Below, in pieces: positions 19,622-45,035 of a DNA stretch of 64,000 nt (position 1 is its first letter; every line of letters starts with the position of its first letter). Origin of the DNA: Candidatus Kapaibacterium sp. Lineage in GTDB: Bacteria; Bacteroidota; Ignavibacteria; Kapaibacteriales; UBA2268. The notes beneath the pieces were generated by a model. It did not search any database. It was given only the letters and a program-made list of their open reading frames with translations, and was not told where the DNA came from. The stretch covers positions 2,080,001 through 2,144,000 of the forward strand of contig OY762428.1 of NCBI GenBank assembly GCA_963665665.1, written 5' to 3'. The position numbers were made by a program, and so were the translations under genes.

Positions 19622-22402
19622 ATGATAAAATTAAATACAGCACTAAAAAAAATAGAACCGTACTATCCATTCTTTGTTATAGGTTTTGCAGTGATATATG
19701 GTATTATTTATGGTTTATTTTTGTATTTCCCTTCACCAGATGAATGGCAATATTTACATGAAACAATTGTTATCTCTGAATATCTAAAAAATTGGGAATG
19801 GTTTGGAAATGCACAAGTAGGTACACATGGTTCATTATTCAAAATTCCACCTGCAATAATAATGATATTTACCAAGCCAACTATTTATATACCTTATTTT
19901 TATCATGTTTTACTAATATGTTTCAATGTAATTGTTTTCTATAAGGTCGCATTGATATTATTCAATTCAAAAGGCTGGAGTTTTGTTGCTACTTTTTACT
20001 TCATTGCCTCTAGCTTGATGTTACAAGGTTCTTTCAGATATCTAAGAGAAACACCCTCAATCTTGATACTCACAGTATTATTTTATACGATTTTAACAAA
20101 AAAACACAGTTTAATTATTGGTATTGTTTTATTAATATTGCTCGAAGCAAAAGAATACATAGGAATTATGGGAATTGGCGGGGTATTACTTTATTATTCT
20201 TATAATTATTTGAAGGAAATGAAAACAATATTTTCATTAAAATCTATTGGAGTTTATTTAATAAGGTCTGCTGCTACAGTAATTCCATCATTTATTTTTC
20301 TTTTTTTGATGTATTATACAGGATTTATTCCTGAGAATAAACATATTAGTTTAATTTTTGGATTAAATTTCAATCATCTTAATCAGAATATAATCATAAA
20401 CCCAAGCTCTTCTGCTTATTCACTTGATAAAAGATTTAGAAAATATGCCAATCCAGTCAGAAGTAAGAATAATTTTAAATCCACTAAAAGATTTGTTGAT
20501 ATTGTTGATTATATTCATTTTAAAAATAACACAGATAATGATATTGATTATTCAAAATTAAAATATGATTTTTCTAAATATGAGGAAGATATAAATTCAA
20601 ATGTTGATAATGCTTTTATTTTTGATAATGATAAAGAAAATAATATTCAAATAAAGAAAGGAAAAAATAATTTAATTAGTAAAAAAAGGAATTTAATTTC
20701 AATTATTAAAGTAAATCAAAAACTTGAACTGGCATATAATTATACACCTCCTCCAAAACCAACAAGCAATAAGGAAGAATCCCAGGCATCTGCCACCCCC
20801 CCAACAAGCAATAAGGAAGAATCCCAGGCATCTGCCGCCCCCCCAACAAGCAATAAGGAAGAATCCCAGGCATCTGCCGCCCCCCCAACAAGCAATAAGG
20901 AAGAATCCCAGGCATCTGCCGCCCCCCCAACAAGCAATAAGGAAGAATCCCAGGCATCTGCCGCCCCCCCAACAAGCAATAAGGAAGAATCCCAGGCATC
21001 TGCCACCCCCCCAACAAGCAATAAGGAAGAATCCAAAGCATTACCAATCAAAGAAACATTTGTAGTAGATTACATAGATGATGAAAAGAAAACAAAAAAA
21101 ATTGAGAATAATAAAAATAATAAGGAAATTAAAAAGAATTCTAAAATAGTGAATAATGATGGGTATATTACAAAAACTATCAAATATAAAGGTATTAAAG
21201 AAAATACGAAAGACAAAGTTAAAATTAATAGAGATTATGGAACTGACAATAATATTAATAGAATGGATTATCTCGGGTTAATACAGGATATTACCTTACA
21301 AGTTTCATATATTATTGTATTAATAGTTAACAGAGTATTTACTGAATCTACATTTAATTATGCTTCAGTTCCAATTTATATAATTATTATTTCTTTAATT
21401 TCTATTATGAATATCATTATTTCAGGTAGATCTAATTGGAGTTTAATTTTAATATTTTTCTTTGTTTTTCTTGCATTTTTTTTACTTAGAACTCATCAAT
21501 CAAGATATTTACATCCAAATATTTTACCTATAGCACTTTTGTTTATTTATTTTGCAAAAAATGTAATTTATAAAAAGAAACATCTCTTGTTATTCATAAT
21601 AATTTCTATTCCTGCTTCAATTTTTCAATTAATTTATGCCGGTTTCGCTTTTACTTTCTTGCCTTCATTATTTGTTCAATTTGTTTTGATTGTATTATTT
21701 CTTGTTAAGCGACCTGAAATTAAAAAAATTGTTATAGGAGTTTTTATATTTTTTACTATATCTTTTAGTATTATTTACGTGGTTAGATCTTGGATGAATG
21801 TTGAAAATGAAATCGGTATTGACAATTATGAAGAAAAGATGAGAAAATATTCTTCATATTTCGACCTCAATAATAATGTTTACTTTTTACATTCTTTAAC
21901 TAATCCTAGATTTTATTTTGAAGGTATAAAATTTTATAATAGAGATATTAATACCGGAGCTTTATTCTATAGAGCACATTATGACTACTTAGATCCAAAA
22001 TTTCCAAAATTTTATTACATTGATTATTATAAACCAAACATTTTTGATTTTCAGTATTATGGGTTGAAATCTCAATTCTCATGGTATGGTATATTATTAC
22101 GTCCTTTTAACGATAAATGGAAAATGAATATTAATAAAGTTGCCTTTGTAGTAAGTAAAAATTTTGAATATTTAAAGTTTGAATTTAAATATTCTAATAA
22201 TAATCAATCAATATTATTAGATCAATTTGATTCGGATATTAGTAGTAAAATTAGATATTGGGAGAGGGCAACATATTATAAAGATATATTATACAAAACA
22301 AAACCGGATTGGCTTATACTTGAAGAAGTTCATGAATTATGGGATAATCAGGAGTTAAGAATTTATGGAATAGATAATAAATACAGAAAAATTGAAAATT
22401 GA
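19622..22402 (+). CDS. Polytopic membrane protein, GT-C (ArnT/PMT-like), with a large hydrophilic repeat insert
   Basis: PDE after TM1, many TM helices, RYLHP late motif, about 300 aa hydrophilic insert. Confidence 0.6.
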   Translation: MIKLNTALKKIEPYYPFFVIGFAVIYGIIYGLFLYFPSPDEWQYLHETIVISEYLKNWEWFGNAQVGTHGSLFKIPPAIIMIFTKPTIYIPYFYHVLLICFNVIVFYKVALILFNSKGWSFVATFYFIASSLMLQGSFRYLRETPSILILTVLFYTILTKKHSLIIGIVLLILLEAKEYIGIMGIGGVLLYYSYNYLKEMKTIFSLKSIGVYLIRSAATVIPSFIFLFLMYYTGFIPENKHISLIFGLNFNHLNQNIIINPSSSAYSLDKRFRKYANPVRSKNNFKSTKRFVDIVDYIHFKNNTDNDIDYSKLKYDFSKYEEDINSNVDNAFIFDNDKENNIQIKKGKNNLISKKRNLISIIKVNQKLELAYNYTPPPKPTSNKEESQASATPPTSNKEESQASAAPPTSNKEESQASAAPPTSNKEESQASAAPPTSNKEESQASAAPPTSNKEESQASATPPTSNKEESKALPIKETFVVDYIDDEKKTKKIENNKNNKEIKKNSKIVNNDGYITKTIKYKGIKENTKDKVKINRDYGTDNNINRMDYLGLIQDITLQVSYIIVLIVNRVFTESTFNYASVPIYIIIISLISIMNIIISGRSNWSLILIFFFVFLAFFLLRTHQSRYLHPNILPIALLFIYFAKNVIYKKKHLLLFIIISIPASIFQLIYAGFAFTFLPSLFVQFVLIVLFLVKRPEIKKIVIGVFIFFTISFSIIYVVRSWMNVENEIGIDNYEEKMRKYSSYFDLNNNVYFLHSLTNPRFYFEGIKFYNRDINTGALFYRAHYDYLDPKFPKFYYIDYYKPNIFDFQYYGLKSQFSWYGILLRPFNDKWKMNINKVAFVVSKNFEYLKFEFKYSNNNQSILLDQFDSDISSKIRYWERATYYKDILYKTKPDWLILEEVHELWDNQELRIYGIDNKYRKIEN
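20759..21041 (+). repeat. 42-bp coding tandem repeat (6 full + 1 partial), unit PTSNKEESQASA(A/T)P
   Basis: Units start at 20759, 20801, 20843, 20885, 20927, 20969 and 21011. Confidence 0.95.
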
Positions 22403-38198: not shown

Positions 38199-38450
38199 CC
38201 GAGCGTTCCCTCGTGTTTGCCGAGTGTTTCCTCGTGCTTGCCGAGTGTTTCCTCGTGCTTGCCGAGCGTTCCCTCGTGTTTGCCGAGTGTTTCCTCGTGT
38301 TTGCCGAGTGTTTCCTCGTGTTTGCCGAGCGTTCCCTCGTGCTTTCCGAGCGTTCCCTCGTGCTTTCCGAGCGTTCCCTCGTGCTTGTCGAGCGTTCCCT
38401 CGTGCTTGTCGAGTGTTCCCTCGTGTTTGCCGAGCGTTCCCCAGAGCCTT
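38199..38450. repeat. 21-bp tandem repeat, 11 copies + 1 degenerate
   Basis: Consensus ccgag(c/t)gtt(c/t)cctcgtg(c/t)ttg; each unit contains CGAG-N6-CTCG. Confidence 0.95.
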
Positions 38451-38627
38451 CCGAGAGACTTTTTCAGTCAAAATTATTATCAGAAAACACGGAATTTTAC
38501 TTTTTTGATTAAAAGTTTCGTTGGTTTTATCAGATAAAACACTTTGATCATTTGATGTATTAATCAGGCAGGACCGATAATCGGTTTTGCCTTGTAATTG
38601 TTTTATTCATAACTATTGGAGGTTACA

Positions 38628-39905
38628 ATGCCGATAATTGTTGATAATTCGTTCACGAATGATTCCCACGGGATGAGGGCCGAAAGGCTTAATGCCATAC
38701 AGGGGAATCTTTCGATAATACAGCCCGAGCTTAACGCACCGCCGGAAATTACCGGATGGGCTTCGGGATGCTATGACTTGTTTATGCAGAAGTGGGCCAC
38801 GGCCGGAACAGAGAGCGGCGAGAAGGAAGGAGCCACTTATGACGTTAATGTTAAGGAGGAGAAGATGGAGGAGGAGTACCAGCACTGCCGCAATGTTGGT
38901 ATTGCTGCTTATGTTGATGATCAGATGCACCTGAAGGATTTTCACTTCGACGAGACATACCCGCGTGGTAGGAATGACTGTGTTGCCAGGGTGAAGCTTG
39001 TTCTGGATGCACACCTGCGGCACGAGGCCGAGGGGATTACGCACCTGATACCGGCAGAGCTGATAGTGAGGCTGACTACTGCTGTAACGGAACTGGAAGA
39101 GGCCCTGCGGAATCAGGACAAGGAAAGGTCGGAGGCGGAACATGCGGTTCTTGAGCTTTCGGAGGCCATGGAATATGATACTAAGAAGCTGAATACGCTG
39201 AAGTCCTGGTGGTTTGCCATTATGGGCAAGGAGGATCCGAGGATTGGCTATATCGGGATGGTGAACCCAAAGGGCGGCCAGGGGCGGCGCCTGCCGGCAG
39301 TACCGCAGAACTTTACTTACAATATCGGGAGCGGCGTGTTTTCCTGGGATGCGGTGGAAACTGCTACGAGCTATCAGCTTGCCTACCGTCACGCGGGAAC
39401 GAGCGAGAACTGGGAGCAGGGCTATCAGGGCGGCGATACAAGCAGCAGTTTCTTCCCCGGCGCCGGCAGCTGGGAGTTCAAGGTGCGCGCCCGCAACGAG
39501 CATGGCTACGGTGATTTCTCGAATGTGATAACGACCGAACTTGAGGACATTTTGCTGCCTCCGGCATGGGTATACGCACACTACAGCGGCGCCCCGGCAG
39601 TCAGGGGAGAGGGGGCCCCGGGGAACGGGGAGGCTCCGAGGGTTGAGCAGAACAATGTGGAGGTGACATGGGCGGAATCAACACGGGCGGAGCTTTACGA
39701 GATATGGCGCTCTATTGTTGATATTAATGATCCTCCGGGTGAATTTACAAAGATAGTGGAAACGAGCAGCCGCCGCTACCTTGATTTTGATATCCAAAGC
39801 CTTACCCGCCATTATTATTATATTATTGCCACCGCCGGGGAGCTGCGCAGCGAGCAGAGCGTGCAGGCAATGGCGGAGATATTGCAGGCGACGCCGGTGG
39901 CGTAA
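38628..39905 (+). CDS. Hypothetical protein: helical N-terminal half plus two fibronectin type III-like domains
   Basis: GGAGG RBS before ATG 38628; SWDAV..ATSYQL, FKVRARNEHGYGDFS, VTW..YEIWRS and YYYIIA; no signal peptide. Confidence 0.75.
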   Translation: MPIIVDNSFTNDSHGMRAERLNAIQGNLSIIQPELNAPPEITGWASGCYDLFMQKWATAGTESGEKEGATYDVNVKEEKMEEEYQHCRNVGIAAYVDDQMHLKDFHFDETYPRGRNDCVARVKLVLDAHLRHEAEGITHLIPAELIVRLTTAVTELEEALRNQDKERSEAEHAVLELSEAMEYDTKKLNTLKSWWFAIMGKEDPRIGYIGMVNPKGGQGRRLPAVPQNFTYNIGSGVFSWDAVETATSYQLAYRHAGTSENWEQGYQGGDTSSSFFPGAGSWEFKVRARNEHGYGDFSNVITTELEDILLPPAWVYAHYSGAPAVRGEGAPGNGEAPRVEQNNVEVTWAESTRAELYEIWRSIVDINDPPGEFTKIVETSSRRYLDFDIQSLTRHYYYIIATAGELRSEQSVQAMAEILQATPVA

Positions 39906-41145
39906 GGAAGAATAACTGGGATAAGTAGGAAAAGAAGAAGGATGGGTAGGATGATAAGGAGAAGAATCTGCACTGGGATGGGTTGGATGATGAAGAGGGA
40001 TGGGTAGGATAATGTTTCTTCATCTTAATCCTATTAATCCAAAACATCCTATAAATCCAAGTTCTGACTTGTAGGATGATGAAGAGAAGAATCAGCACTG
40101 GGATGGGTAGGATGGAGAAGACAGATGAATAGGATAATGAAGACAGAGGGGCTAAATAACATTTCTTAATCCTATAATCCTATAATCCTAAACATCCTAT
40201 AAATCCGAGTTCTGACTTGAGGGATGATGAAGAAGATAAAGAATCTGCACTGGGAGGGGTAGGATGAAAAAGACAGATGAAGAGGATAATATTTCTTTAT
40301 CTTAATCCTATAATCCTGTACATCCTATAAATCCAAGTTCTGACTTGAGGAGTGATGATGAAGAGAAGAATCAGAATTGGGATGGGTTGGATGAGAAGAC
40401 AGATGAAGAGGATAAAGAAGACAGAGGGGCTAAATAACATTTCTTAATCCTAAATCCTAAACATCCTATAAATCCAAGTTCTGACTTGAAGGATGTAGAG
40501 GATGAAAAAGATAGATGAGTAGGATAATGTTTCTTCATCTTAATCCTATTAATCCAAAACATCCTATAAATCCAAGTTATGACTTGTGGGATGATGAAGA
40601 GAAGAATCAGCACTGGGATGGGTAGGATGGAGAAGACAGATGAATAGGATAATGAAGACAGAGGGGCTAAATAACATTTCTTAATCCTATAATCCTAAAC
40701 ATCCTATAAATCCAAGTTCTGACTTGAAGGATGATGAAGACAGATGAAGAGGATAATGTTTCTTTATCTTAATCCTATAATCCTAAACATCCTATAAATC
40801 CTAGTTCTGACTTGAGGAGTGATGATGAAGAGAAGAATCAGAATTGGGATGGGTAGGATGGAGAAGACAGATGAATAGGATAATGAAGACAGAGGGGCTA
40901 AATAACATTTCTTAATCCTATAATCCTAAACATCCTATAAATCCAAGTTCTGACTTGAAGGATGATGAAGACAGATGAAGAGGATAATGTTTCTTTATCT
41001 TAATCCTATAATCCTGTACATCCTATAAATCCGAGTTCTGACTTGAGGAGTGATGATGAAGAAGAGGCTAATGTTTCTTCATCTTAATCCTATATATCCT
41101 AAACATCCTATAAATCCGAGTTCTGACTTGAAGGATGGAGAGGTT
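39906..41145. repeat. GxxExxY-associated repeat array 1 (10 cores)
   Basis: Core tcttaatcctataatcctaaacatcctataaatccaagttctgacttg; gttctgacttg at about 40061, 40209, 40337, 40478, 40576 (gttatgacttg), 40716, 40804, 40947, 41035 and 41120. Confidence 0.95.
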
Positions 41146-41203
41146 AGAAATGGAAAAAATGTGTAAATTGCACAAGGAATTGTTTTTTAATATTTTAGTG
41201 CTG

Positions 41204-42349
41204 ATGAAATTACGATTGCTATACCTTACCTACTCTGTGCCGCGCCCGTCTACGCCTCTGTCCAGTGCTTTCAATATGAACAGGATCAGGGAGTTAAAAA
41301 GAAGGAACAATATTGGGCTGTATGCCCTGAGTTTTGAGCATTTTGTTAAATTTCATAAATATAGATCGAATTATAATTTTAGCGACCTGGGATTTGACTT
41401 TGACCAGGATGTAAAATGCCTGCTTAAGGTTGAAAACCCATATAGCTATATGGATATGCTAAGGCCTGTTAACACGTTCAAAATTTATAAATTTTATAAA
41501 GAAAATAATATTAACCTGATTCATGCACATGTTCTGCGGGATGGATATTACGCACATCTTGTAAAACGGAAGCATCCCGGTGTTAAGTATGTCCTTACTG
41601 TTCACGGAAGCTATATTGCATATTTGCCATTCAGGTCTGAAAGGATCTAAAGAATAACTTTGGAAGTATTGGAAAGTGCTGATAAGGTTTTTTTTGTTTC
41701 TAATTTTCTTTTAACTACTGCAAGAAAACTTGGTTATAAAAGTGATAACTATATCGTTATAAACAATGGCTATCCGCCTGATATTTTTAAATTTGATAAT
41801 AAAAAAGAAAGCAAATATCCGATTATAGGTTTTTGCGGCAATTTGAATAATGTAAAGAATGTTGTTTCTCTTGCAGGCATTTTTGAAATAATAAAAATAA
41901 AATTTCCCGAAGCAAAGATGCAGATAATCGGGCAGGGGACAAAATTCCGGCACATTTCCGAAGATTTTAAAAACAGGGGCTTAAGTGAATTTGTAAGTTT
42001 TACAGGAGGAATCAGGCAAAAGGAGATTGCCGGATATTTTTCCTCTATGTCAGTTTTGCTGTTGCCAAGTTTCCGCGAAGGATTCCCGACTGTAGTTGCT
42101 GAAGCCATTGGCTCCGGACTTCAGGTAGTCGGGTCAGATATTGGAGGTGTGCGTGAAGCGGTTGGTGATTGTGGAAAGCTGGTAGATCACGGGGATGATT
42201 TCGAGAGAAGATTCGCGAAAGCAGCAATAGAATTAATTCAAAGGCCTGTTAACAAACAGATTATCAGGAAAAGAGCAGATGAGTTGACATGGAAAAATAT
42301 TATTGATAAGGAAGTTGAAGTATATCACGAAATTTTGGGCCATGGATAA
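41204..42349 (+). pseudogene. Glycosyltransferase family 4 with an in-frame premature TAA (41648-41650)
   Basis: The two ORF-track pieces share a frame (RSERI*RITLEV); EGFPTVVAE motif. Confidence 0.8.
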
Positions 42350-42461
42350 CATCAAGCCATGAAACCTTTGAAATTATTTACTTAATAAATTATTACAGCA
42401 ATGACTGAAAAGAATATAAATATTGATATTGAGTATGGTTTAGATTCGAGATATTAATCAA

Positions 42462-42985
42462 AGAAGAATCAGCACTGGGAGGGGTAGGATGAGAAGATAG
42501 ATGAAGAAGATAAAGAATCAGCACCAGGATGAGTAGGATGAAAAAGAAGGATAAGAATCTGAACTGGGATGGGTAGGATGGGAAAGGATGAGTGGGATGA
42601 TGAGTATGAGAATATTTTTTCATCTTAATCCTATAATCCTGAAAATCCTATAAATCCTAGTTCTGACTTGAGGGATGATGAAGAAGATAAAGAATCTGCA
42701 CTGGGAGGGGTAGGATGAGTGGGATGATGAGTATGAGAATATTTTTTCATCTTAATCCTATAAATCCAAAACATCCTATAAATCCGAGTTCTGACTTGAG
42801 GGATGATGAAGAAGATAAAGAATCTGCACTGGGATGGGTTGGATGAAAAAGACAGATGAAGAAGATAAAGAATCAGCACTGGGATGGGTTGGATGAAAAA
42901 GACAGATGAAGAGGATAATATTTCTTTATCTTAATCCTATAATCTTAAACATCCTATAAATCATAGTTAAGACAAGAGAAAGGAT
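42462..42985. repeat. GxxExxY-associated repeat array 2 (3 cores, last one degenerate)
   Basis: Core ends near 42660, 42788 and 42966. Confidence 0.93.
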
Positions 42986-42991
42986 ATTACA

Positions 42992-43372
42992 ATGGAAAAT
43001 GAGGAATTAACTCATAAGATAATTGGCTGTGCTATGAAGGTGCATTCAATTCTTGGAAGTGGATTTCAGGAGGTGATTTATCAGCGTGCATTAGGAATTG
43101 AATTTAATAACGCAAATATTTCCTATCAAAGAGAATTTGAAATGGAAATATATTACGAAGGGGTTCATATTGGTAATAGAAGGGTGGACTTTTTCGTTGA
43201 AGATACTGTTATGGTGGAGATTAAGGCAGTCTCCAAGCTTGAAGATGTCCACCTTGCTCAGGCAATAAATTACTGTGAGGTATATGGCCTTCCTTATGGA
43301 TTACTTTTAAATTTCGGATCCTCCAAACTCGAATTTAACAGAGTGTACAATTTGAATAAGAGAAGAAGATAA
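42992..43372 (+). CDS. GxxExxY protein (PD-(D/E)XK nuclease fold)
   Basis: LGSGFQEVIYQRAL, RVDFFVEDTVMVEIKA, QAINY and GLLLNFG motifs. Confidence 0.92.
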   Translation: MENEELTHKIIGCAMKVHSILGSGFQEVIYQRALGIEFNNANISYQREFEMEIYYEGVHIGNRRVDFFVEDTVMVEIKAVSKLEDVHLAQAINYCEVYGLPYGLLLNFGSSKLEFNRVYNLNKRRR

Positions 43373-44128
43373 ACTAGGATGAGTAGGATGAAAAAGATAG
43401 ATGAAGAGGATAATATTTCTTTATCTTAATCCTATAATCCTGTACATCCTATAAATCCAAGTTCTGACTTGAAGGATGGGGTAGGATGAAAAAGATAGAT
43501 GAAGAGGATAATACTTCTTTATCTTAATCCAATAATCCTGTACATCCTATAAATCCAAGTTCTGACTTGAAGGATGGGGTAGGATGAAAAAGATAGATGA
43601 AGAGGATAATACTTCTTTATCTTAATCCTATAATCCTGTACATCCTATAAATCCAAGTTCTGACTTGAAGGATGGGGAGGATGGAGAAGATAGATGAAGA
43701 GGATAAAGAAGACAGAGGGGTAGGATGAAAAAGACAGATGAAGAGGATAAAGAAGACAGAGGGGTAGGATGAAAAAGAGAAATGAAGAGGATAATATTTC
43801 TTCATCTTAATCCTATTAATCCTGTACATCCTATAAATCCGAGTTCTGACTTGAAGGATGTAGAGGATGAAAAAGATAGATGAGTAGGATAATATTTCTT
43901 TATCTTAATCCAATAATCCTAAAAATCCAATAAATCCGAGTTCTGACTTGTGGGATGATGTAGAGGATGAAAAAGACAGATGAGTAGGATAATACTTCTT
44001 CATCTTAATCCTATTAATCCTGTACATCCTATAAATCATAGTTCTGACTTGAAGGATGGAGAGGATAAAGAAGACAGATGAAGAGGATAATGTTTCTTCA
44101 TCTTAATCCTATTAATCCTGAAAATCCA
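43361..44128. repeat. GxxExxY-associated repeat array 3 (6 cores + 1 partial)
   Basis: gttctgacttg at about 43461, 43559, 43657, 43843, 43940 and 44041; partial core at 44101-44128. Confidence 0.95.
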
Positions 44129-44174
44129 TTTGTTACTTTTTTGTATGAGTTAACAAATGTTTTTTTATTTCTAA

Positions 44175-45035
44175 TCAGCCCTTCTGTGTCAGAAGCACCC
44201 CGCTAATTGCAATTATACCCCCAACAAAAAAAACAGGCGTAAGTACGTGGCCAAGGAAGATCATTGACAATACAGTTGTAAAAATTGGCTGTAGATTATT
44301 GAAAACAGCAACTTTACTTGCATCCAGCCTTGATAGGGCATAGTACCAGAGCCCATAGCCAAAAGCTGATGTCATCACGGCAAGGAATACAATTTTCAGC
44401 CAGTCTGTGGCAATATATTCAGCAGGTGCAAAATCCGGGGATATCAGTAAATATTCCGGCATATATGTAACAAATCCGATGATCATTGTTATTCCGGTCA
44501 TGTATAAACCGCCATATTTTTCTACCATTTTCTTTCCTATGGTAGTATAAAAAGCAAAGGATACACTTGCGGCCAGGGCCAGCAGATTCCCGGCAAAATG
44601 CCCGGAATTAAGGTCAATACCCTTCTCAAATAATATCATAGATGTTCCTGCTATAGCTGTAAATATCCCGGCTGTTTTTCTCCATGTAACTTTTTCTTTT
44701 AGAAAGGCCATAGATATTATCAATACAAAAGCCGGCATAATAGCATAAGCAAGCGCTACATTCGGGGCACCGGTCATCTTGATACTTGTCAGGAAAAGGA
44801 ACTGATTGATAGGAACATTCAATATCCCCAGTACAAGGCATGTCAGGTAATCTTTTTTTTCAATTTTTTTCTTACGCAGGTTACCAAATTTTATCCAAAC
44901 AATAAATATTAAAGCAGCAAATAAGGAACGAAAAAGTAAAATGGTTTTTGGGTCGATCCTGTCGGTCAGGTCTTTAGCTATAACGTGCGAGCTGGAAGCC
45001 GTAAACTGCTGAATAACTATCAGTATCTCAACCAT
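44175..45035 (-). CDS. DMT/EamA family transporter
   Basis: About 10 TM segments, duplicated EamA pattern (FLKEKV, NLQPIF). Confidence 0.88.
   Translation of the reverse strand: MVEILIVIQQFTASSSHVIAKDLTDRIDPKTILLFRSLFAALIFIVWIKFGNLRKKKIEKKDYLTCLVLGILNVPINQFLFLTSIKMTGAPNVALAYAIMPAFVLIISMAFLKEKVTWRKTAGIFTAIAGTSMILFEKGIDLNSGHFAGNLLALAASVSFAFYTTIGKKMVEKYGGLYMTGITMIIGFVTYMPEYLLISPDFAPAEYIATDWLKIVFLAVMTSAFGYGLWYYALSRLDASKVAVFNNLQPIFTTVLSMIFLGHVLTPVFFVGGIIAISGVLLTQKG

Follow-up and report, generated by a model that had tools for sequence, protein, structure and literature searches.

The stretch analysed here (the window) comprises 64,000 nt of contig OY762428.1 of Candidatus Kapaibacterium sp., positions 2,080,001 to 2,144,000 of the forward strand. 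Between window positions 39906 and 44128, within a glycosyltransferase/EamA cluster, it carries a gene of the GxxExxY family and three arrays of a repeat built on a 9-nt period; these arrays and their relation to the gene are our subject. The locus is a recent tandem amplification, and the 5' arms of its repeat units have decayed. Comparison with relatives from several phyla suggests that gene and repeat belong to one cassette. The features are listed below in window coordinates, with approximate array borders (ORF, open reading frame).

39906 to 41134, + strand: array 1, ten hairpin-derived units of 85 to 166 nt each; the 26-nt ends of its cores start at 40046, 40194, 40322, 40463, 40561, 40701, 40789, 40932, 41020, and 41105
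41135 to 42349, + strand: GT4 glycosyltransferase gene, broken into two ORFs of the same frame (41135 to 41650 and 41660 to 42349), with arrays 1 and 2 on either side
42458 to 42976, + strand: array 2, purine-rich modules leading into two cores of canonical sequence (26-mers at 42645 and 42773), plus one that has diverged (42929 to 42976)
42980 to 42984, + strand: AAGGA, Shine-Dalgarno-like, 7 nt 5' of the ATG by direct reading
42992 to 43372, + strand: GxxExxY gene, 126 aa, with its ATG at 42992 and a TAA stop at 43370 to 43372
43361 to 44128, + strand: array 3, seven units, made up of six full cores (26-mers at 43446, 43544, 43642, 43828, 43925, and 44026) and one truncated core (44100 to 44128)

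Each unit consists of a degenerate, purine-rich 5' arm, a loop, and a conserved core of ∼48 nt that forms the 3' arm. A preliminary description of the locus, made from the sequence alone, had counted 19 full cores and 1 partial core in a single orientation between 39906 and 44128, and the count holds. A pattern search of the window with the 26-nt end of the core returned 18 matches at ≤3 mismatches, all on the + strand from 40046 to 44051 (0.00 expected from 100 shuffles), and direct reading added the diverged core just 5' of the gene and the truncated core at the end of array 3. In the whole genome (5,458,198 nt; GC content, 38.6%), the 26-mer at ≤4 substitutions gave those 18 matches as a single cluster and none elsewhere. 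The 9-nt periodicity was equally clear: among the 77 occurrences of ATCC in the arrays, successive gaps were exactly 9 nt in 43 of 74 cases and 8 nt in 12 of 74, and GGAT had 9-nt gaps in 18 of 71 cases (shuffle means for gaps of 8 to 10 nt, 0.015 for ATCC and 0.175 for GGAT). Tandem Repeats Finder reported higher-order periods of 88 to 231 nt at 78 to 98% identity; the 231-nt period belongs to array 1, whose loops read GGATAATGTTTC or GGGGCTAAATAAC. The segments between cores measure 37 to 180 nt and are themselves built of repeated modules, and the arrays are purine-rich on the + strand (GC skew, 0.24 to 0.40). We consider the duplication in array 3 recent because two adjacent units (43472 to 43569 and 43570 to 43667) differ at a single base. 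Contigs of another strain (run X4) join the array units differently, which hints that array structure differs between strains; these joints lie inside repeats at low depth and may be alternative placements of units. A reading of the arrays as coding DNA was rejected: all + frames are closed within one unit, and the minus-strand ORFs of 70 to 91 aa are low-complexity read-through of the repeat.

The purine-rich segments had been described as imperfect reverse complements of the core (18 of 23 positions), which direct reading confirms, and from this it had been proposed that units fold into hairpins or cruciforms. Self-complementarity is indeed readable in the sequence, yet it is thermodynamically weak at this locus. 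Across 20 units, Watson-Crick pairs make up 461 of the 620 positions aligned between the arms; G.A (58) and A.A (40) account for most mismatches, and there are 21 G.U against 14 A.C, which we count as no wobble excess. Six units folded as single-stranded DNA had z scores of −1.7, −1.1, −2.7, +0.5, −0.7, and −2.7 relative to shuffles, whereas hairpins of the same family in relatives folded at −6.5, −4.4, −6.0, and −3.4, and a diverged copy elsewhere in this genome folded at −2.1. The window hairpins are thus decayed, with a 3' arm that is still canonical. A structured RNA partner, also suggested previously, found no backing here: the arms lack a G.U over A.C excess, the units fold weakly, and an Rfam search of 39000 to 45000 on both strands (E ≤ 1) gave only chance-level matches far under the gathering scores.

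Profile searches bear out the assignment of the gene to the GxxExxY family. PF13366 (PDDEXK_3) matched with 129.2 bits (cut-off, 22; E = 1.2e-37) and TIGR04256 with 134 bits (cut-off, 35; E = 3e-39), each over nearly the full profile, and the genome has no other clear PF13366 gene. The family motif reads G24-F-Q-E27-V-I-Y30. Of the catalytic residues D66, E76, and K78, the first is invariant and the other two are kept in ≥90% of 28 aligned sequences. The AlphaFold (AF2) model (predicted local distance difference test score, 94.5) has a restriction-endonuclease-like alpha/beta fold, and its best PDB match was Cas4 SSO0001 (E = 2e-4; template modelling score, 0.57), followed by lambda-exonuclease-like enzymes and the AdnAB nuclease domain. 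Weak structural matches included a splicing endonuclease, Hjc, and the PD-(D/E)XK homing enzyme I-Bth0305I (E = 0.17). A Cas4b profile matched weakly (E = 6e-5), and a sequence search of solved structures returned nothing at E ≤ 0.1. Judging from these residues and the model, the protein looks like a minimal Cas4/RecB-like PD-(D/E)XK nuclease, and it looks active. In a second strain (contigs of runs X4 and X5) the gene differs by three synonymous changes and Y102F. The arrays abut the gene on both sides, as had been noted before. The diverged last core ends 15 to 18 nt 5' of the ATG, with AAGGA in between, in ...ATCATAGTTAAGACAAG, a diverged form of the terminal motif GTTCAGAC; on the other side, the TAA stop lies inside gaagaagataaa, which is the beginning of the next unit's 5' arm.

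The canonical element opens with GTCTGAAYTAGGATT, continues through three or four GGAT(T) boxes spaced at 9 nt and a loop, and closes with a mirror arm ending in AATCCTARTTCAGAC. The window core equals its 3' arm, and the reverse complement of the core, GTCaGAAcTtGGATTTaTAGGATgtttAGGATTaTAGGATT, closely fits an arm consensus built from other phyla. When 40 relatives were searched at the DNA level, 7 had short core matches, spread over many contigs and both strands; those that we read were palindromic elements starting with GTCTGAACT[AG]GGATT and ending in the mirror image. In one of these genomes (G029), a pair of core matches brackets a GxxExxY gene. Across 81 genomes of the order, 30 had PF13366, and all 27 full GxxExxY loci returned were inspected. 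By eye, most of the 27 have inverted arms of a short motif recurring every 8 to 10 nt, and the type of motif, compared by eye with the protein tree, goes with the clade: GGATT/TGATT in the window's clade, GAT-based motifs in a second clade, and GCAGAG/CAAAG in the remainder (tree support, 98/97 for clade A and 100/100 for clade C). Tandem hairpin arrays resembling those of the window occur at five loci (L015, L017, L023, L030, and L031). Among 80 genomes of the order, PF13366 was present in 11 of the 15 motif-rich genomes and in 18 of the 65 others, and the counts of terminal motifs and of PF13366 correlated with a Spearman coefficient of 0.41; both figures are uncorrected for kinship.

A scan of the genomes of 185,579 species with a seven-sequence alignment of the window's clade confirmed at least 591 relatives among the 600 pattern matches listed. 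The best 80 of these (L039 to L118; 59 to 74% protein identity) formed our flank set, of which 78 loci were scored; they come from Bacteroidota, Cyanobacteria, Chloroflexi, Leptospiraceae, Nitrospirae, Balneolaceae, and others. The preliminary description had proposed that the flanks of GxxExxY genes across genomes be searched for repeat enrichment, and the inverted arms are indeed enriched. The score of the upstream flank against the reverse-complemented downstream flank had a median of 20, compared with 10 for 135 control ORFs from the same loci; 59 of 78 loci but 7 of 135 controls lay above the controls' 95th percentile, and 10 of 78 lay above the control maximum. An automated whole-flank palindrome score separated less well: its median was 40 in a set of 27 loci, 37 in a set of 75, and 20 in 112 controls, and 12 of 27 and 26 of 75 loci lay over the controls' 95th percentile, against 6 of 112 controls. 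The lowest flank scores belong to two relatives that lack the catalytic E and K (L037 and L038), counted as one event because they are near-identical.

In these relatives, GTCTGAATTAGGATT...GGATT stands immediately 5' of the ATG and AATCC...AATCCTAATTCAGAC lies over or just past the stop; the gene's start and stop codons form part of the arms. An arm within three substitutions of the 15-mer GTCTGAATTAGGATT was present in 40 of the 78 loci (control sequence, 28 matches in 315 kb). In 24 loci the gene is enclosed by the two arms, and in 5 it lies between complete hairpins, as it does in the window. In the arm consensus, the boxes hold 1.2 to 2.0 bits and the 4-nt spacers 0.1 to 0.6 bits; conserved boxes with unconserved spacers are the pattern expected of protein recognition sites. 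These data show the window repeat to be the arm of a palindromic element that travels with this GxxExxY clade across phyla.

The cassette tends to share the orientation of its neighbours. Among 68 loci with two neighbours, where these point the same way the cassette was co-oriented with them in 44 and opposed in 5, and gaps were short on both sides (≤69 nt upstream in 25 of 60, ≤62 nt downstream in 23 of 58). Cassettes of the window's clade (L039 to L118) often sit within type I restriction-modification operons, adjoining hsdS or hsdM; among 20 hand-picked neighbour proteins, 8 were type I restriction-modification subunits and 5 were Bro-N, KilA-N, DUF1016/YhcG, or T5orf172 proteins. Within one genus, an HlyD-like gene and an FtsX-like permease gene are separated by a spacer that holds a GxxExxY cassette in four species (L011, L016, L022, and L120) and is empty in three others (L119, L121, and L122; 28 to about 85 nt). 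Each of the four filled spacers carries a different arm sequence, and the arms within each are still complementary; in two of the filled genomes, the 200-residue C-terminal parts of the flanking HlyD-like protein that we compared are nearly identical by eye. Judged from these sequences, the cassette acts as an insertion into the spacers of operons. Copies without the gene also occur. G029 has 34 terminal motifs and gene-less hairpins of 85 to 390 nt, whose 3' arms differ by eye from the arm of the gene-bearing copy at about 1 of 41 nt.

Our preferred reading, which we hold tentatively and at a little under an even chance, is that the locus is what remains, tandemly amplified and partly decayed, of a selfish cassette based on a nuclease of mini-Cas4-like type and a palindromic element. 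Gene and element would form a compact cassette that lodges in operon spacers, oriented with its neighbours, and that has moved between phyla, and hairpin copies without the gene would act like repeats of the MITE type (miniature transposable elements with inverted repeats) or the repetitive extragenic palindromic (REP) type, scattering and amplifying in tandem. In this genome, the gene sits between complete hairpin units and not within one; the hairpin, duplicated about 20 times over three consecutive intergenic spacers, has kept its canonical boxes in the 3' arm, and its 5' arm has drifted towards purines. The nuclease would recognise the terminal motif and the phased boxes and cut there or in an empty hairpin. 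Repair of the break would then copy the cassette, either by homing into empty hairpins or by excision and insertion, and might duplicate units locally as a by-product. A broader and doubtful proposal casts GxxExxY proteins as the drivers of a class of bacterial mobile cassettes not described so far, in which a minimal Cas4-like nuclease would read the phased 9-nt boxes of a palindromic repeat, cut, copy itself into empty hairpins, seed MITE/REP-like families, and drive tandem growth, with four-helix-bundle "IVS" genes riding an analogous system (IVS, intervening sequence).

That the nuclease acts on the repeat is our inference, and several observations weigh against the cassette reading. At the four filled and three empty sites of the one genus, we could make out neither a target-site duplication nor a sharp boundary. 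Plasmids seldom carry the PF13366 family (8 of 72,556 records), and phage records yielded none of it, so no transfer vehicle is evident. The window hairpins fold hardly better than shuffles, and if the hairpin is the substrate, most window copies are poor ones. Neither the gene-less hairpins nor the window arrays contain gene remnants beyond the last 12 nt of coding sequence. The element can be abundant away from the gene: in G097, 112 terminal motifs fall into at least 10 clusters, of which many are tandem hairpins lying between co-oriented genes of unrelated function (those for a channel, a BNR/T9SS protein, an epimerase, a GNAT protein, a DUF6933 protein, and an exonuclease), and none of the clusters adjoins its four GxxExxY genes, which bear other arm types or none. 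G086, a genome rated 100% complete, has 19 terminal motifs and tandem arrays and gave no PF13366 match. Hairpins are thus shown to exist and to amplify without the gene as well. Finally, genes for PF05635 four-helix-bundle proteins, the type found in 23S rRNA IVS, are present in 35 of 81 genomes of the order, and 18 of 25 scored loci have inverted tandem arms of 7- to 15-nt motifs that vary by locus. Inverted arms of short period thus also flank unrelated genes, and the architecture is not peculiar to the nuclease. The earlier proposal of a nuclease with a cognate repeat therefore stands in part: the pairing recurs in relatives of several phyla, but two relatives have arrays with no matching gene, and the PF05635 loci share its architecture.

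The same gene-less arrays in G086 and G097, and the sharing of one architecture by two unrelated ORF families, are what one would expect if the hairpins were an independent REP/MITE-like family, spread by another enzyme or by slippage and recombination, in which small selfish ORFs (GxxExxY and four-helix-bundle) merely accumulate and the window arrays are a neutral satellite. The decayed 5' arms and weak folding of the window units fit this explanation, as does the array structure that varies between strains, and short-period intergenic repeats are on record in Beggiatoaceae, Cyanobacteria, and Bacteroidetes (PMC4679880). Against it, the arms accompany the gene across phyla at 59 to 74% protein identity, the arm type tracks the protein clade by eye at the 27 loci, the arms take in the start and stop codons, and the exact repeat occurs in this genome solely around the gene. 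We regard independent hairpins as fairly unlikely.

The PF05635 loci also bear on an RNA-level alternative, since members of that family occur in 23S rRNA IVS. Here the arms would pair in the operon transcript, and the long stem would loop the ORF out, so that the host operon takes no harm from the insertion; RNase III may cleave this stem, or the stem may bring the upstream stop beside the downstream start. The ORF would be a selfish passenger and the arrays a by-product of the stem element. Co-orientation of the cassette with its neighbours (44 against 5), its tight fit between stop and start, the architecture at 18 of 25 PF05635 loci, and the arm sequences that vary at one site among related genomes with complementarity retained all agree with such a device. 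In 40 gene-enclosing arm pairs, however, there were 37 G.U against 47 A.C mismatches (1,282 Watson-Crick pairs); the window arms, with the counts given above, show no preference either. The absence of a wobble bias speaks against a selected sense-RNA stem and is silent on which protein, if any, reads the DNA. In addition, the boxes of clade A are conserved in sequence as well as in pairing, the gene lies between hairpins instead of inside a stem in the window and at five other loci, and Rfam has no matching family; no RNA run is listed among the sequencing runs that contain the stretch. An IVS-like device is unlikely in our view, if plausible. A further RNA-level candidate, a CsrA sponge with many GGAUG motifs, was set aside because the element is a DNA-level palindrome common to several phyla.

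Co-oriented imperfect palindromes flanking promoterless genes also recall integrons, with attC-like recombination sites, or CRISPR arrays, with repeat-spacer units; the small unrelated co-oriented genes split by hairpin clusters in G097 and the Cas4-like fold of the protein point in the same direction. The integron integrase profile TIGR02249, however, reached 90.5 bits at best in this genome (G000) against a cut-off of 265 and had no match above the cut-off in G097, G029, G089, G018, or G086. attC sites have an R''/L''-L'/R' structure with a GTTRRRY core, a consensus that the ends GTCTGAAC and GTTCAGAC do not fit by eye, and most genomes, in contrast to attC, have a single cassette with two half-arms enclosing the gene. 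Unlike a CRISPR array, the locus lacks identical repeats with unique spacers of similar length, the segments of 37 to 180 nt between cores being repeated modules. We consider either system extremely unlikely here. At one G097 locus (L171; G097:C1:1225000-1234500), there are ten small co-oriented ORFs, of which those with Pfam matches are unrelated (epimerase, GNAT, DUF6933, and exonuclease); between them lie mosaics that combine tandem GGATT hairpins with a second perfect palindrome (CAGTCCGACCAGTTG...CAACTGGTCGGACTG).

Among known systems, one of the two nearest is the pairing of REP sequences with REP-associated tyrosine transposases (RAYT), in which an HUH Y1 (IS200/IS605-like) tyrosine transposase gene is flanked by inverted short palindromic repeats that are also dispersed genome-wide. 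Both systems have a single-copy nuclease-type gene with inverted palindromic flanks and a repeat that also occurs without the gene in spacers, singly and clustered. Here, however, the protein is a 126-aa PD-(D/E)XK (Cas4/RecB-like) one, with no HUH Y1 gene between 38 and 46 kb, and the arms are 40 to 50 nt of 9-nt phased boxes; the repeat is dispersed in G029 and G097, whereas this genome has one locus and three diverged hairpins. MITEs and their parent insertion sequences share with the cassette inverted repeats with conserved ends, near-identical arms in gene-bearing and gene-less copies (in G029), intergenic insertion, and presence or absence among related genomes. They differ from it in that no transposase is recognisable here, no target-site duplication was seen, and copies that lack the gene keep no trace of it. 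Another comparison is with homing endonuclease genes, free-standing or repeat-targeting, which include those for PD-(D/E)XK homing enzymes. Like these, the cassette has a small nuclease gene in a conserved spacer, flanks that could serve as repair homology, and filled and empty alleles; its presumed target is a repeated palindrome and not a unique gene site.

The IVS of 23S rRNA, the other of the nearest systems, are described as carrying an S23p/four-helix-bundle ORF between terminal inverted repeats and as being cut out by RNase III, and the same source regards them as selfish, sporadic, and horizontally acquired, with an unknown mechanism of mobility (PMC4990558). They resemble the cassette in having a small ORF between inverted repeats able to form a long stem, and PF05635 genes of the order outside rRNA share GxxExxY-like arms. 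The window locus differs in lying between protein-coding genes and not in helix 25 or 45 of 23S rRNA, in its nuclease ORF, in the position of the gene between hairpins, and in the ∼20-fold amplification of the hairpin. Cyanobacterial short tandemly repeated repetitive (STRR) sequences are intergenic heptamer direct repeats. TAACTGA heptamer repeats of unknown origin are reported from intergenic regions of Beggiatoaceae, Cyanobacteria, and Bacteroidetes (PMC4679880). As with the arms studied here, these are tandem short motifs in spacers near start codons, patchily distributed across Cyanobacteria, Bacteroidetes, and others; they differ as direct repeats with no link to GxxExxY or four-helix-bundle genes, set against inverted arms around a gene. 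The heptamer repeats may be a related phenomenon. GxxExxY itself appears in a table row as "function unknown" in one paper (PMC3424549) and is mentioned incidentally in the text of another (PMC8934634). We found no literature linking GxxExxY to flanking repeats; subscription papers, supplements, and the text of the TIGR04256 curators were outside the scope of that search. The twenty tandem copies around the gene, of an element that also brackets its relatives in many phyla, point to an undescribed selfish cassette of gene plus repeat, within the known kind of nuclease gene with palindromic repeat.

In Bacteroidota, Cyanobacteria, and related phyla, few small proteins of unknown function are as common as the PF13366 and four-helix-bundle "IVS" proteins, and their genes clutter operons, type I restriction-modification operons above all. 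The conserved anatomy (terminal motif, phased boxes, mirror arm, co-orientation, and filled and empty alleles) provides a hypothesis that can be tested on defined substrates. Should the nuclease act on the arms, the system would be a second, mechanistically different counterpart of REP/RAYT and a possible source of the unexplained short-period intergenic repeats of STRR or heptamer type in Cyanobacteria, Bacteroidota, and their neighbours, and a 126-aa enzyme reading a phased DNA motif could have practical use. If it is inactive on them, the value for annotation remains, for the arrays break short-read assemblies, mimic repeat-spacer arrays, and mark operon insertions.

Between arrays 1 and 2, the GT4 gene has a Glyco_trans_4-like N-terminal part and a Glycos_transf_1 C-terminal part and is disrupted in this genome by an in-frame TAA at 41648 to 41650. 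Contigs that probably derive from the source sample carry the same stop. Those of the second strain, from another study (runs X4/X5), read ATT AAA at this site, leaving the gene open, and the stop is therefore strain-specific. Capture of the glycosyltransferase gene between the arrays is possible. The surroundings also raise the question of whether the arrays are a regulatory platform for polysaccharide genes, on which a host factor would bind the phased ATCC boxes and copy number would tune or switch expression. The 9-nt phasing, the location in a glycosyltransferase/EamA cluster, and variable-copy 9-nt arrays at the 5' ends of three paralogous genes of the same genome are in keeping with this idea. 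Yet there were only 6 promoter-like sites, where shuffles had a mean of 16.4 (the two terminator-like sites both fall within the glycosyltransferase gene), the adjoining glycosyltransferase gene is a pseudogene here, and in other phyla the element turns up in unrelated settings, often in type I restriction-modification operons. A regulatory role is very unlikely.

This genome holds further repeats of similar build. Its PF05635 gene (C1:4405696-4406004), one of the 18 loci with inverted arms, has 9-nt periodic TTGATAGTT/TTGAAAGTT arms and a full hairpin behind it, and the arms of some PF05635 cassettes of the order are tandem TTGGTCA-type motifs. Three diverged hairpins of the same family as the window's, each of ∼95 nt (C1:938080-938175, 941955-942050, and 3375128-3375225; GTCTGAACTATGATT...CATCCCAGTGCAGAA), adjoin paralogous ORFs with no Pfam match, and one of them is read through by an ORF. 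The tandem 9-nt arrays at the paralogous genes (AATAGGATG-like; C1:96566-96660, 640881-641040, and 653124-653320) contain 10, 17, and 21 matches to a three-box GGAT pattern and, read on the gene strand, end in the core-like AATCCAAGTTTAGAATC. Translated as part of the longest ORF, they would give (H/N)P(I/V) tripeptide repeats before a signal-peptide-like segment. Each looks like an arm of the same repeat family inside or just before the coding region.

Directly 5' of array 1, at 38616 to 39905, lies a 429-aa ORF with no Pfam match and a GC content of 45 to 58%, compared with 38.6% for the genome; the second strain has several small indels at 39621 to 39648, within this ORF region. The window also has two unrelated tandem repeats, at 38199 to 38441 (21-nt unit, 11.6 copies, 91% matches) and at 20759 to 21041 (42-nt unit, 6.7 copies, 98% matches).

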